DNA from: Pristiophorus japonicus
Lineage: Eukaryota
Assembly (NCBI RefSeq): GCF_044704955.1
Contig: NC_091980.1
Coordinates: 130,696,001-130,760,000, forward strand
Reading direction: 5' to 3'
Length of the DNA: 64,000 nucleotides
In this document: positions 781-63,207 of the stretch, one piece after another
How positions within the stretch are numbered: position 1 is the stretch's first letter
Layout: each line of letters starts with the position of its first letter
Notes under the pieces: generated by a model
What the model saw: only the letters and a program-made list of their open reading frames with translations
Told to the model about the DNA's origin: nothing
The model's database searches: none
Program-made: the position numbers and the translations under genes

Positions 781-3700
781 ATGGCTTCTCAAGTGTGTCA
801 GAATTACCACAAGGACTGTGAGGATGCTGTCAACAAGCAGATCAACATGGAGCTCCATTCCTCCTATGTTTATCTCTCTATGGTGAGTTTTGTATTTTTT
901 GCCACTTTACAATGGAGACTATGTAATGTGAATTTATGAAATCCTGTGCAGTACACAGCCCACCTATTTCTCTCTTTCTGCCCACCTGCCCTGAATCTAT
1001 GCAGTGAGTTCACTTTAAAGCTATAATATGATCCAATTTATCTTAATTTGTATTTATTAACAAATTGTCTTTGTTTCTTGCAGCAGCTGTATCATCTGAT
1101 TATTTTGATTTTTTTCCTGGGATCTTGAGCTTGATGAAGTTTATTTGGAATACATTCTGTACACAATGCAAGGAATTCAGAATTTGTATCCTCATTCTAA
1201 ATCACTGCATGGATTTTCCTTACCTTGCTGGTTCAATGGGTGATGTCATAAAAATAAATCTAGGCCTTTTCGGAGGGATGTCAGGAAGTATTCTTTCCCA
1301 CCAGTGTGGTGGAAATCTGAAACACTTTCTTTCTCAGCCATCCCTCACCTCCACGGGGAGGATGGGAAGAAAGTGTCACAAATGTTTCTGCTTCCCTCCT
1401 GTTCCTATTTCTCGCCACTAATTTTAAGTACCAGTTTGTATCCTTCTGTCTTTCCTCTAACTTTTTGCAATCATAAAGCCAGATAGTTAATCATCATTTG
1501 TCTGTGCTCAGTGGACTCTCCCTTAACCCCTGTGACCTTCACCAAGCACCCTCAAATTCTGAGGGGTTCTCATAACTTTTTTATTCTGTGGTCCCTGGTT
1601 CTCCTCTACAATGCTTTGATTTGTGTAGACTGTCAAATTAATGCTGCTTGTGGTAGTTTTAGTTCCTTGGCATGAATGCAGCCAGTAAAACTCGGTTAGT
1701 TTTTCTTCTTTCATATATGATATGAATTCTGCATTGGGACTAGATCTAGTTTAGGCAGTTGCTTTTACTGCCTCTCAACTAGCCTGTACAAAATGTATTT
1801 GGGTTAATAAACAATTATTATTGGAGCATGCTACTGGTGACCAGGGTATAAATCTTGTGGCAATTCCTTCACCTAATTTCCAGAGCTACAATGAATATTG
1901 GGTGCCAAGATTCAGGTTCCAGTTTTAAGCATGTTCAATCAAAGCTGAATTGGTGATCATGAGTGATGCAGCACAGGAGGCCATTCAGTCCATTGTGCCT
2001 TGCTGAATGTTGGGTGGAGCGATACAACTGTTTCCATAGCCTACAAATTTTTCTAAATCACGTAAGAGGATGAGAAGGGGGAATTAGTAATGGGCAACAT
2101 AGAGATGGCAGAAAATCTGAACAAATATCTTGTATCTGTTTTGACAGTAGAAGACAATAACAACATTCCAATGGTGGATAGTCAAGGGGCTATTGGGGAG
2201 AGGTACTTAATGCAATAACAATCACCTGAGGAAGTAGTACTCAGTAAGATAATTGGGCTCAATTATGTCCTGATGGCTTGCATCCTCGGGCCTTGAGAAG
2301 CAGGGATTGTGGATGTATTGGTTATAATTTACCAAAATTACCTGGATTCTGGGGAGGTCCCAGCAGATTGGAAAGCTGCAAATGTAATGCCCCTTTTTTT
2401 TTAAATAAAAGAAACTTTTGACCAGTTAGCCTAATATCTGATAGGGAAAATGTTGGAGTCCATTATTAACATCGCAGGGACATTTGGAAAAGCAAAATTT
2501 GATCAGGCAGAGTCGGCATGGATTTGTGAGGGGAAATAGTGTTTGACAAATTTGCTGGAATTCTTTGAGGATGTAATGAACAGGGTGGATGAAAGTGAAC
2601 CAGTGGCTGTTTTGTATTTGGACCTCCAGAAGGTATTTGAGAAGGTGCCACAAAAGATTACGGCACAAGATGAAAGTTCACAGGCTTTGGGGGTAATATA
2701 TTAACATTGATAGATGATTGGCAAAAGAACCGAGTCAGGATAAATGGTTCATTCTCTGGTTGGCAACCAGGATCTAGTAGAGTGCTGCAAGGATCAGTGC
2801 TGGGACCCCAACTATTTACAATCTATATTACATTCTGTCCCTCCTTCCAAGTCGGTTACGTCGCCTAGTTTGTTCCTCCCAACTTTATCAGTAATGTGTG
2901 AGGAGAACACACTTCTGCAGAAGGACATAGGCAGGCTAAGTGAGTGGGCAAAAATTTGACTGTAGGAAAGTGAGGTCATGCACTTTAGCAGAACAAGAAT
3001 CAAAGAGCAAATGTTTATTGAAATGGAGCAAGATTGCAAAGTGCCGCAGTACAGCAGGAGCGGAGCGGAGGTGGGTGGGGTGTGGTGGGTGCCTCTACTC
3101 ATTTGGAATTCAGAAGAATGAGGTGAACTTATTGAAGTGTATAAGATTGAGGGGGCTTGACTGGGTGGATACAGAGGATGTTTCCACTGATGGGGAAACT
3201 ACAACTAGAGGGCATGATCTTAAAATAAGGGGCTGCCCATTTAGAACTGAAATATCTTGAGCGGTGTCAATCTGTGGAATTCACTGCCTGAGCTGTGGAA
3301 AGCTGAGACATTGAATAAATTTAAGACTGTAATACAGTTTCTTAAATGCTAAGGGGTTATGTGGGGATGAGTCCATGATCAGATCAGCCATAATCTTAAA
3401 TGGTGGAACAGGCTCTGAGCTGTGTGGTCTACTCCTGTTCATATTTCTCATGTTAGGTTTCCCTATGGCTGGAGCTGAGATTATCCAATGTATTTACCAG
3501 GTTAATTGAGTAGGTTCTAGTTTCCATAAATATACATACAAGTTCAGTGAGACTGAGCTCTTGAAGCAAGAAAAATGAGTTTGGCTTCATGTACAGTGCC
3601 CATGCTGATGGGTCTGCCATGCAATAATCAACTACTCTTCTGATCCCTCCGCAGTCCTTCTACTTTGACCGGGATGATGTTGCCCTGCGTCACTTTGCTG

Positions 3701-60566: not shown

Positions 60567-63207
60567 CAGTAAAACTCAGCTAGTTTTTCTCTTTTTTTTT
60601 TATATACAATATGAATTCTGCACTGTGACTCGATCTCTAGTTTAGGAAGTTGCTTTGACTGCCAATACTGCCCCTCAACTAGCCTGTACAAAATGTATTT
60701 GGGGTAATAAAGTAGTATTATTAGAGCATGCTACTGATGACCAGGGTATAAATCTTGTGGCAACTCCGTCACTAATTTCCAAAGCTACAATGGATATAGG
60801 GTGCCAAGATTAAGGTTCCAGTTTTAAGCATGTTCAATCAAAGCTGAATTGGTGATTGTGGAGTGATGCAGCACAGGAGGCCATTCAGCCCATTGTGCCT
60901 TGCTGAATGTTGGGCGGAGTGATACAACTGTTTCCATAGCCTGCAAATTTTTCTAAATCACGCAAGAGGATGAGACTGGGGAATTAGTAATGGGCAACAT
61001 AGAGATGGCAGAAAATCTGAACAAATATCTTGTATCTGTTTTGACAGTAGAGGACAGTAACAACATTCCAATGGTGGATAGTCAAGGGGCTATAGAGGGG
61101 AGGTATTTAATGCAGTAACAATCACCTGATGAGGTAGGACTCAGTAAGATAATTGGGCGAAAGTCAGATAAATGGTCCTGAAGGCTTGCATCCTAGGGTC
61201 TTGAGAAGTAGCGGCAGGGATTGTGGATGCATTGGTTGTAATTTACCAAAATTCCCTGGATTCTGGGGAGGTCCCAGCAGATTGGAAAGATGCAAATGTA
61301 ATGCCCCTATTTTTTTTAAAAGTTGGAAACTATAGACCAGTTTGCCTAAAATCTGATTGGAAAAATGTTGGAGTCCATTATTAACATAGCAGCAGGGACA
61401 TTTGGAAAAGCAAAATTTGATCAGTAGAGTCGGCATGGATTTATGAAGGGGAAGTCATGTTTGATATATTTGCTGGCATTCTTTGAGGATGTAACAAACC
61501 CAGTTGATGGTGAACCAGTGGCTGTGGTGTATTTGGACTTCCAGAAGGCATTTGACAAGGTGCCACAAAATTACTGCACAAGATGAAAGTTCACAGGCTT
61601 TGGGGGTAATATACGAGGATGGATAGAGGATTGGCTAAAGAACCGAGTTGGGATAAATGGTTCATTCTCTGATTGGCAACCAGTATCTAGTAGAGTGCCG
61701 CAGGGATCAGTGTTGGTACCCCAACTATTTACAATCTATATATTACACTCTGTCCCTCCATCCAAGTCTGTAACGTAGCCTAGTTTGTTGTTCCTCCCAA
61801 CTTTGTCAGTGATGTGTGAGAACACACATCTGCAAAAGGACATAGGCAGGCTAAGTGAGTGGGCAAAAATTTGACTGTTGGAAAGTGAGGTCATGCACTT
61901 TAGCAGAAAAAAAAAATCAGCAAATTTTTATTTAAATGGAGAAAGATTGCAAAGTGCCACAGTACAGCAGGAGTGGAGGGGGGTGGGGTGCCTTTACTCA
62001 ATGGAATTCAGAAGAACGAGGTGATCTTATTGAAATGTATAAGATTGAGGGGGCTTGACTGCGTGGATACAGAGAGGATGTTCCCGCTGATGGGGGAGAC
62101 TACAACTAGAGGCATGATCTTAGAATAAGGGGCTGCCCATATAGAACTGAGAAAGTTCTTAAGGGTTGTCAACCTGTGGAATTTGCTGCCTGAGCTGTGG
62201 AAAGCTGAGACATTGAATAAATTTAAGACTGTAATACAGTTTCTTAAATGCTAGGGGATTATGTGGGGATAAGTCAATGATCAGATCAGCCATAATAAAT
62301 GGTGGAAAAGGCTCAGAGCTGTGTGATCTACTCCTGTTCATATTTCTCATAAGTTTCCCTATGGCTGGAGCTGAAATTATCCAATGTCTTTACCAGGTTA
62401 GTTGAGTAGGTGTTAGTTTCCATAACTATACATTCAAGTTCAGTGAGACTGAGCCCTTAAAGCAAGAAAAATGAGTTTGACTTCATGTACAATGCCCATA
62501 ATGGGTGTGCCATGGAATAATCAACTACTCTTCTGAGCCCTCCGCAGTCCGTCTACTTTGACCGGGATGATGTTGCCCTGCGTCACTTTGCGTTCTTCAA
62601 GGAGCAGTCACATGAGGAACATGAGCATGCTGAGAAACTGATGGAATTCCAGAATCGGCGTGGAGGCCGAATCATCTAGGCAGACATCAAGGTTTGGCTC
62701 CATAAACGAGGGCCCTTCTGTTTGGTTCCCCTTAGACTGATTGTTCACAATACATTGTAAAGGAGTTGGTTACAATTTACAGCACAGGAACCAGCCATTT
62801 GGACAAACTGGTCCATGCTGGTGATCAGCTTCAGACGACGTAATCCCACCTTGCTTTATCCAGCAACATATCATTCTATTCCTTTTTCCCTCATGTACTT
62901 ATTTAGTTTCCCCTCAAATACATCTATGCTATTCACCTCATAAATTTGACATCGGTAGTTGACTTAATGCAGTAATTCAATATTCTAACACATTGTTTCA
63001 TGGTAACCTAGACTTCTGATTGCAATTTTTCCATCCCTAATTTCCTTCAATACTGTCCTATTTCCAAACCTGTTTTTACTGCTTGTACTATTACATATGT
63101 GCCACCAGAGGGCACTGCAGTCAGACTTGCAGGTGACCTGTACAGGTGTGCCTTGCCCAGTATAAAAGGCAGGCCAACAGGTGTGATTCTCACCACGAGT
63201 TCCATTA

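Follow-up and report, generated by a model that had tools for sequence, protein, structure and literature searches.

A pan-shark tandem ferritin array in Pristiophorus japonicus, with intact and broken gene copies and a candidate role in the ovary

In this study, we analyzed a 64-kb stretch of Pristiophorus japonicus DNA (the window), which carries six ferritin loci, all on the forward strand, two of them intact (c1 and c2) and four broken (c3 to c6). The window almost certainly belongs to a ferritin array that occurs across sharks, and our best overall explanation, to which we assign a probability of roughly 0.6, joins that pan-shark array with gene conversion, a dosage role in the ovary and a step involving NCOA4. 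The expansion as such is already published and is neither species-specific nor new; what is added here are the apparently IRE-less leaders, the intact ferroxidase centre, the homogenisation of exons, the altered NCOA4 face and the near-silence of 38 Greenland-shark copies in fin and blood. The six loci are as follows.

781..8923, + strand: c1, type A, intact, 176 aa; exons 781-882, 3655-3801, 8334-8459 and 8768-8923
13912..16464, + strand: c2, type B, intact, 176 aa; exons 13912-14013, 15422-15568, 15806-15931 and 16309-16464
24551..28828, + strand: c3, type A pseudogene; stops at 27502, 27607 and 28284, and a 1-nt insertion in exon 4
32793..36009, + strand: c4, type C pseudogene; 9-nt deletion in exon 1 and a stop at 35429 in exon 3
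42430..45010, + strand: c5, type B pseudogene; exon 2 lacks 1 nt at its end and exon 4 has a 2-nt insertion
52821..62691, + strand: c6, type A pseudogene; exons 1 (52821-52922) and 2 (62548-62691)

Both intact genes have exons of 102, 147, 126 and 156 nt, GT-AG introns and an open frame of 176 aa; c1 has a polyadenylation signal (AATAAA) 115 nt past its stop codon, and the proteins of c1 and c2 match the automatic P. japonicus models P0216 and P0222, respectively, at 100%. Further damage was found in c4 (exon 4 lacks 2 nt at its start) and in exon 2 of c6 (a 3-nt deletion and a stop at 62677), and TATAAA and AATAAA have decayed in both c4 and c5. No lesion is common to any two copies, in agreement with an earlier sequence-only reading of two intact genes and four disabled by independent lesions; array copies die independently of one another. 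That reading had also described six same-strand genes of four exons and of three promoter/intron types. The strand and the count were borne out and the types were confirmed (A in c1, c3 and c6; B in c2 and c5; C in c4, with an A-related promoter and a B-like intron 3), while four exons are visible in only five of the six genes because c6 runs on past the window, with its exons 3 and 4 beyond the end. Human FTH1 has the same number of exons, four.

Whole units of roughly 10-13 kb, introns included, were duplicated at the DNA level, both singly and as B+A pairs. The repeat features of the window are these.

12176..25456, + strand: higher-order block (gene B with the 5' portion of the gene A that follows), with a copy at 40739-53729 at 90-92% identity
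4317..8219, - strand: decayed LTR retrotransposon in c1 intron 2, with a CATTA target-site duplication and an integrase fragment
53730..60566, no strand assigned: LTR-bounded 6.8-kb insertion, only in c6 intron 1, with a CAGTA target-site duplication
63208..64000, - strand: c1-type LTR element in c6 intron 2, cut by the window end

The LTRs of the c1 intron-2 element are 5.3% apart, as are those (~550 nt) of the insertion in c6 intron 1. In c1 and c6 the intron-2 LTR insertion lies at the same nucleotide and the corresponding site in c3 is empty; the c6 element was duplicated along with its gene unit. Base 1 of the window finds its match in the upstream DNA of units, at 23770 and at 52027, and base 64000 falls within the element shared with c1, so both ends lie inside repeat units, as had been suggested. 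Tandem amplification by DNA-level duplication with continuing gene death is thereby supported. That the array is instead an assembly artefact, or consists of retrocopies, is extremely improbable. The setting is repetitive and sequencing errors might account for the indels of 1-2 nt found in c3, c4 and c5, but c3, c4 and c6 also carry nonsense codons, and similar arrays are present in independent shark assemblies. The units are 81-92% identical to one another and have private insertions with target-site duplications, and a divergence of 8-19% together with such insertions argues against both chance matches and duplicated assembly, a possibility already judged unlikely in the earlier reading. 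Retrocopies are intronless, whereas introns occupy the same positions in all six loci.

The best matches to these genes are shark models named 'ferritin heavy chain B/A/oocyte-like', in clusters of 180, 138, 127, 69, 54 and 47 members. About a dozen sharks, from both superorders, have such relatives, which in each species sit largely on a single contig, and the matches listed include at least 59 distinct models of P. japonicus, at least 33 of them of 176 aa. Models of 264-304 aa in several sharks, considered as a subtype of conserved long forms, proved to be chimeras that splice adjacent copies, and the FCH matches within them, considered as a neighbouring gene, fall on ferritin sequence.

Two groups have reported the expansion in other sharks. 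The part of Sahm 2024 (10.1101/2024.09.09.611499) that was available describes, in one paragraph, an 'FTL and FTH1' expansion in the Greenland and white sharks (155 + 179 copies), with ~80% of copies in three clusters that are syntenic between both species and an array age of at least 250 My. Our clade contains white-shark copies, from the clusters called syntenic with the Greenland shark in that part of Sahm et al., and, judging by its chromosome-level pattern and by model lengths of 528/531 nt, the Somniosus cluster may correspond to this clade. The same part gives more than 85% of Greenland-shark copies as full-length, against two of six intact in this window, and its statement of at least 90% identity to human orthologues misfits the present copies, c1 being 73% identical to horse FTH1. 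The available sections of Yang 2026 in PNAS (PMC13214024) describe 59 tandem copies of a Greenland-shark 'FTH1b', distinct from FTH1a and located on a single chromosome as clusters of 55 and 4, and give lower copy numbers for rays and elephant fish than for sharks. The likeness to the present array is that of a tandem ferritin family on one chromosome, although the species differs and the expansion is read there in terms of ferroptosis and longevity. The terms 'ovar', 'pseudogene', 'gene conversion', 'concerted' and 'iron-responsive' do not occur in the main text of Yang 2026 as available, and ferritin goes unmentioned in the 2025 preprint of Yang et al. Our literature search, which was incomplete and gives weak evidence, returned no work on shark ferritin arrays that deals with the loss of IREs, with pseudogenes or with conversion. 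The array was largely characterised before, at least in the accessible portions of these papers, a condition named at the outset as refuting, so that novelty is not supported, and the description of the family as lineage-specific holds for an origin in cartilaginous fish but fails in the narrow sense because the array is pan-shark, is at least 250 My old according to what is available of Sahm et al. and has a ray gene in its clade.

Trees were built without teleost fthl27 and without teleost M. In these the array clade had support of 100/100 and 100/99 and stood apart from H, and copies grouped by species or order (98/87, 98/84 and 100/95), with the exception that c2 joined a Heptranchias copy weakly (88/67) in one smaller tree. 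One ray gene belongs to the clade. An orthologue of FTH1 or fth1a would be expected inside the gnathostome H clade, and the array forms a separate one; the shark fth1a genes also form a separate cluster on other contigs than the array members. An AU test rejected union of the array with chondrichthyan H (p 0.02), and with it the idea that the array consists of recent duplicates of shark fth1a. A position as sister to all H was not rejected (p 0.35), nor were unions with bony-fish M (p 0.41; gar, bowfin and coelacanth, with no teleost M in the set) or with L plus a second shark subfamily, II (p 0.39). The phylogeny proposed as a check with H, M and L ferritins separates the array from H and leaves positions with M, with L plus subfamily II or as sister to all H. 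We had considered the window clade as an FTL orthologue, from L-like motifs and a 91/72 split, but that split disappeared once subfamily II was added. Shark fth1a is ~72% identical to c1, with which it has in common the ferritin fold and a complete ferroxidase centre. The earlier comparison to mammalian FTH1 gained no support, as sharks keep a separate fth1a with which the array is not nested.

The array proteins can be assigned to the ferritin (PF00210) family, since that domain is found in all named single-domain relatives; exon 2 matches 237 distinct PDB sequences, the best 60 of which are ferritins throughout. The ligands of the ferroxidase centre are E27, Y34, E61, E62, H65, E107 and Q141. 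All seven are present in c1 and c2, which are accordingly predicted to be ferroxidase-active (H/M-type) subunits, and each site is retained in 136-141 of 142 subfamily-I proteins. The L chain has a disabled centre with K at E62, where c1 and c2 keep E; subfamily II, which lies outside the window, has K there in 29 of 29 proteins. The chains of c1 and c2 have no signal peptide and align from the first residue to cytosolic ferritins.

The promoters of the intact genes are located as follows.

542..703, + strand: type-A promoter of c1; CCAAT at 542, ATTGG at 570, 609 and 638, TATAAA at 698
13735..13840, + strand: type-B promoter of c2; three ATTGG boxes, TATAAA at 13835

The ATTGG boxes of c1 represent three reverse CCAAT boxes. 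The type-B promoter has the same layout as type A, but its sequence cannot be aligned to it. With the transcription start placed from the TATA box, c1 and c2 appear to have short 5' leaders (~55 nt in c1) that lack an iron-responsive element (IRE). An Rfam scan of the 64-kb window gave no IRE hits, the weak matches over the c1 and c2 promoters included no IRE, and none of eight IRE-like hairpins falls within a leader. The housekeeping ferritins FTH1, FTL and M carry a 5' IRE, in which FTH1 thus differs from the array copies.

Exons of different types are 92-96% alike although the promoters and first introns of those types can no longer be aligned. Within a type, dS (0.085-0.089) is close to intron distance (0.08-0.13). 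A and B differ by a dS of only 0.10-0.15, whereas intron 1 and 700 nt upstream are unalignable in all four pairs and the alignable parts of introns 2 and 3 differ by 0.16-0.24. Exons this similar beside flanks that cannot be aligned point to exon-centred gene conversion, which we consider likely to act on top of the birth and death of units. Old types may simply persist, however, as the flank tree conflicts with only 4 of 16 informative exon sites and c2 groups weakly with a Heptranchias copy in one smaller tree. Frequent duplication and independent pseudogenes, as in the birth-and-death model of multigene families of Nei and Rooney, are both present in the array, but between A and B dS does not track the flanks and, one weak exception aside, copies do not group across species as independent evolution would have it. 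The proposal of turnover like that of an immune gene family is therefore supported for duplication and gene death and not supported for purely independent turnover, because the proteins are uniform and the exons look homogenised.

Selection on the copies appears loose, with pairwise dN/dS of 0.34-0.96; the value for the intact pair is 0.39, which departs from neutrality at p about 0.05. Possibly, one or a few genes are needed in the ovary and the remaining copies turn over near-neutrally in a region rich in repeats and prone to recombination. This genomic drift would agree with the death of four of six copies, with such dN/dS values beside an fth1a that is nearly invariant (0.013 changes per site between two sharks), with five substitutions of c2 in or near conserved motifs, each present in no more than 2 of 130 relatives, with the loss of two ligands from the lone ray gene of the clade and with the fewer copies in rays and elephant fish (PMC13214024, as far as available). 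We nevertheless regard it as unlikely, given large arrays in about a dozen shark genomes of both superorders, ligands conserved in 136 or more of 142 proteins and, within types, promoters that diverge less (0.05-0.07) than introns (0.08-0.13).

Provisioning of oocytes, one of the roles initially suggested, gains support from ovary-specific RNA of the Greenland-shark cluster, given in one sentence, for that one other species, in the available part of Sahm 2024 (10.1101/2024.09.09.611499), and a dosage role in the ovary is our preferred and probable reading. A protective role in somatic tissue, against ferroptosis or oxidative stress and connected with PUFA-rich tissue, depth or longevity, was proposed in Yang 2026 (PMC13214024), whose accessible sections note some FTH1b copies as active in fin and blood. 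An intact catalytic centre would suit it, as would the snailfish, where available sections of PMC10746142 report 14 mostly tandem fthl27 copies versus 3, high expression in most tissues and lower ROS in cells on overexpression; as a tandem ferritin expansion in a fish it resembles the array, from which it differs in being recent, species-level and expressed in most tissues. Among 38 of the 59 FTH1b genes, as named in Dataset S4 (PMC13214024), fin has zero reads in 33 and blood in 35. These counts, the ovary-specific RNA in Sahm, the altered NCOA4 face and the high copy numbers that Yang (PMC13214024, in part) also gives for sharks without such lifespans make a somatic role rather improbable.

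Shark ovaries sit within the lymphomyeloid epigonal organ, so RNA from the ovary does not designate a specific cell type. The 'ovary' signal might then come from epigonal leukocytes, with the array a nutritional-immunity family that withholds iron; dogfish ovary libraries do hold immune genes owing to that organ, and loss of the IRE would permit synthesis at low iron. Such a role, also suggested initially, is improbable as well, as it draws no support from the blood data, with nearly no reads, and the proteins lack a signal peptide and are uniform rather than diversified.

Under the preferred reading the array would probably act through dosage, loading oocytes with iron and giving them antioxidant protection, in convergence with the yolk ferritins of invertebrates. 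Unequal crossing-over would drive the turnover of copies, while exon-centred conversion would keep subunits near-identical across old promoter types, which would suit a 24-subunit cage. Transcription, judging from another shark, would be mainly ovarian, and copy number without IRP repression could allow bulk, iron-independent synthesis of a ferritin that would hold iron for yolky oocytes, which are large and long-lived, and protect the lipid of their yolk against peroxidation driven by iron. Ferritin is present in the eggs of fish, frog and fluke. The NCOA4 binding site of human FTH1 depends on R23 and A19, and subfamily I has K for R23 in 132 of 142 proteins and D for A19 in 110 of 142. This altered face may slow ferritinophagy of the oocyte store, although escape from NCOA4 is doubtful and the weakest step of the mechanism; shark fth1a has S at human N22, so the human rules may not transfer to sharks.

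The yolk ferritins of the snails Lymnaea and Biomphalaria also provision eggs and have a 5' UTR without an IRE (PMC10799875, as available). According to the same source, in part, they are secreted products of the digestive gland with a signal peptide and a 42-aa insertion, neither of which the 176-aa shark chains have, so the likeness is one of functional analogy only. Tentatively, the array could be a vertebrate counterpart, built by sharks, of yolk ferritin: ovary-restricted, IRP-free, possibly NCOA4-free, kept uniform by conversion and co-amplified on one chromosome with the L-like, catalytically disabled subfamily, so that oocytes would assemble an H/L-type heteropolymer of their own. If that were true, tying the expansion to longevity and ferroptosis, as has been done in print, would misread a family of reproductive genes. 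Among published gene expansions of the Greenland shark this one is the largest, and it is currently discussed as a longevity/ferroptosis candidate, whereas gene anatomy and the accessible expression tables suggest a pan-shark egg-provisioning family instead, and raw ferritin copy counts include many dead genes. Next to the FTH1b genes in the available part of Dataset S4 (PMC13214024) stands gs_018934, which is very highly expressed.

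Long same-strand repeats of 81-92% identity run throughout the window in self-alignment, and exon searches located six ferritin loci within it. The sequence-only reading had described six four-exon genes of three promoter/intron types, two intact and four independently broken; this description holds apart from c6, of which exons 1-2 alone lie within the window.

Ferritin loci of the window, all on the + strand
781-8923, +: c1, type A; 176-aa frame from canonically spliced exons of 102, 147, 126 and 156 nt
13912-16464, +: c2, type B; 176-aa frame from canonically spliced exons of 102, 147, 126 and 156 nt
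24551-28828, +: c3, type A; three nonsense codons and a 1-nt insertion
32793-36009, +: c4, type C; 9-nt deletion, stop and 2-nt deletion
42430-45010, +: c5, type B; 1-nt loss and 2-nt insertion
52821-62691, +: c6, type A; 3-nt deletion and stop, exons 1-2 only, window end beyond

TATAAA precedes the ATG by 83 nt in c1 and 77 nt in c2, each with three upstream ATTGG boxes and AATAAA ~115 nt past the stop, and no two of the four broken copies have a lesion in common. The types are ordered A B A C B A, and a B+A block is present twice, its copies being 90-92% identical in self-alignment.

Arrays of this kind are already in print. In the Greenland shark, 155 'FTL' and 179 'FTH1' copies are reported, ~80% of them in three clusters that are syntenic with white shark and at least 250 My old (Sahm et al. 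2024, 10.1101/2024.09.09.611499), and 59 tandem 'FTH1b' genes have been described, with sharks carrying more copies than either rays or elephant fish (Yang et al. 2026, PMC13214024). Snailfish fthl27 has 14 copies, mostly tandem (PMC10746142). The sequence-only reading had named earlier characterisation of the expansion as a ground for refutation; with these shark clusters published, that is largely the case, and the window array is a real, further example of an already known kind; that it is an artefact is scarcely credible. A literature search of incomplete coverage turned up no description of a lost IRE, of the share of pseudogenes or of gene conversion for shark ferritin arrays.

Shark proteins were the top matches to c1 exon 4, and c1 and c2 are 100% identical to the automatic Pristiophorus japonicus models P0216 and P0222, respectively. 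Among the matches listed, P. japonicus contributes 59 or more distinct models of the array kind, a lower bound in which isoforms and chimeric models are counted, and at least 33 of these models are 176 aa long. Nine array clusters (15 rows listed each) cover Heptranchias, Heterodontus, Scyliorhinus, Mustelus, Carcharodon, Cetorhinus, Chiloscyllium, Hemiscyllium, Stegostoma and Rhincodon; among the matches listed, copies lie mostly on a single contig per species and none is from a ray. A tenth cluster is ordinary fth1a, from sharks and rays, on contigs other than the array's. Chimeric models that splice neighbouring copies indicate tandem order in other sharks too, and the large array looks shark-wide. 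A few array-type copies on contigs much larger than those of the main array (P0054, P0083, P0096 and P0102; Heptranchias, Carcharodon, Cetorhinus) are dispersed.

The array proteins form one clade apart from H ferritins (support 100/100 in one tree, 100/99 in two others). AU tests rejected nesting of the array with chondrichthyan H (p 0.02), and rejected none of its placements with all H (p 0.35), bony-fish M (p 0.41) or L plus subfamily II, the second, L-like shark subfamily (p 0.39). The clade includes a single ray gene, P0386 of the sawfish Pristis pectinata, whose accession adjoins a conventional M-type gene, so the array gene is older than the shark-ray split. P0386, the sole ray member found, has lost two ferroxidase ligands (E27K and H65R).

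The A units bear the marks of their duplication. One LTR element, with a CATTA target duplication, was inserted at the identical intron-2 nucleotide in c1 and c6, the site being empty in c3. The three units are about equidistant over their first 2 kb; past that point c1 and c6 are nearer each other than either is to c3 in 6/6 bins of 400 nt, and the DNA preceding c6 is 92% identical to that preceding c3. From these mosaic relationships we infer that tandem units have undergone unequal crossing-over. Inter-unit alignments break where A units end 3' in a 33-bp minisatellite (11992-12167 and 31967-32162), a possible recombination boundary. Upstream of both c3 and c6, remnants of LINE reverse transcriptase (21784-23204 and 50010-51038) were copied along with the B+A block. 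Intron 1 of c6 holds an additional, private 6.8-kb insertion (53730-60566) bounded by LTRs 5.3% apart; it is possibly a decayed endogenous retroviral element, and contains a Cys-rich frame of 206 aa (56023-56643, - strand) with no Pfam match. Another LTR element lies between c4 and c5, with like ends at 37000-37223 and 39657-39882 and a Gag/protease-like frame (37507-38313) whose aspartyl-protease match is weak.

Same-type pairs have dS of 0.085-0.089, in line with their intron distance of 0.08-0.13. Between A and B, exon identity is 92-96% for pairs with c1 and 89-93% for c3-c5, with dS of 0.10-0.15; neither intron 1 nor 700 nt of upstream promoter sequence could be aligned in any of 4 pairs, exon 1 flanks come close to the 0.52 shuffled baseline, and introns 2-3, where they can be aligned, stand at a distance of 0.16-0.24. 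Because low exon dS thus accompanies unalignable flanks, and array proteins cluster by species or order in the tree, exon-centred gene conversion across types seems likely. Against this, the flank tree is contradicted at just 4/16 informative exon sites, and c2 weakly joins a Heptranchias copy in one tree. Constraint among copies is loose, with dN/dS of 0.34-0.96 (c1/c2 0.39, p about 0.05); genomic drift, as an account of the whole array, is unlikely.

Both intact copies have 7/7 ferroxidase ligands, and each site is kept in 136-141 of 142 subfamily-I (window-type) proteins. IRE searches, run without a shark positive control, found none by Rfam in the whole 64-kb window, nor any at a relaxed threshold over the c1 and c2 promoters; of eight loose IRE-like hairpins, none falls in a leader as placed by inferred start sites. 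At the NCOA4 face, the human R23 site is K in 132/142 and the A19 site D in 110/142 subfamily-I proteins; in human FTH1, R23A and A19Y are reported to abolish NCOA4 binding. Since R23 to K is conservative and shark fth1a itself departs from human at N22, a changed face in array proteins is only a lead.

Our preferred reading, at a probability of roughly 60%, is an ovary dosage array, in which many catalytically complete copies would supply ferritin independently of iron, loading large oocytes with iron and shielding yolk lipid, while unequal crossing-over would turn copies over and exons would be homogenised across them. The window copies would then be expressed in ovary, to which RNA from the Greenland-shark clusters is reported to be specific (Sahm et al. 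2024). Ovary samples include epigonal tissue, a point for epigonal immune iron withholding, a rather improbable alternative. FTH1b expansion has been discussed in relation to ferroptosis and longevity (Yang et al. 2026); a somatic anti-ferroptosis role is improbable. Of the 44 (of 59) FTH1b genes named, 38 were located in the table rows covered, 33 of these having no read in fin (five have 1-2) and 35 none in blood (three have 1, 2 and 46). An adjoining gene, gs_018934, which may or may not be among the 59, reaches about 1,000 and 12,100 TPM (Yang et al. 2026, PMC13214024). Ferritin is reported in eggs of several animals. Invertebrate yolk ferritin is IRE-less, as the window array is without an IRE motif, and would work analogously, but it has a signal peptide and an insertion that the array lacks, so the array is not a member (PMC10799875). 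Tentatively, a vertebrate yolk-ferritin system may have been misread as a longevity trait.

Other ferritins share the array's contigs. Subfamily II (P0391, P0392, P0424-P0451, outside the window) is amplified on the contigs that carry the array in each species. Ferroxidase E62 is replaced by K, the L-chain lesion, in 29/29 of its proteins, and the subfamily groups with tetrapod L chains (89/87); it may account for Sahm's 'FTL' copies and suggests co-amplification of H-like and L-like subunits in sharks. A further shark and ray clade outside the window (P0061, P0272, P0085, P0273, P0275-P0278, P0284, P0289; 100/99-100), also on the array's contigs, has a 26-62 aa N-terminal extension, Arg/Gly/Leu-rich and almost acid-free, making it a candidate for a mitochondrial ferritin of separate origin from mammalian FTMT. 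In Scyliorhinus torazame, the chimeric model P0099 fuses an FN3-repeat receptor tyrosine phosphatase with a ferritin of the array type, a hint that a ferritin cluster has a PTPRH/PTPRJ-like gene at its border. Two vertebrate-type ferritins, a shark-array-like fragment on a 308-nt contig labelled Salmonella (P0193) and a protein labelled Yersinia (P0316), are probably contamination in public records.
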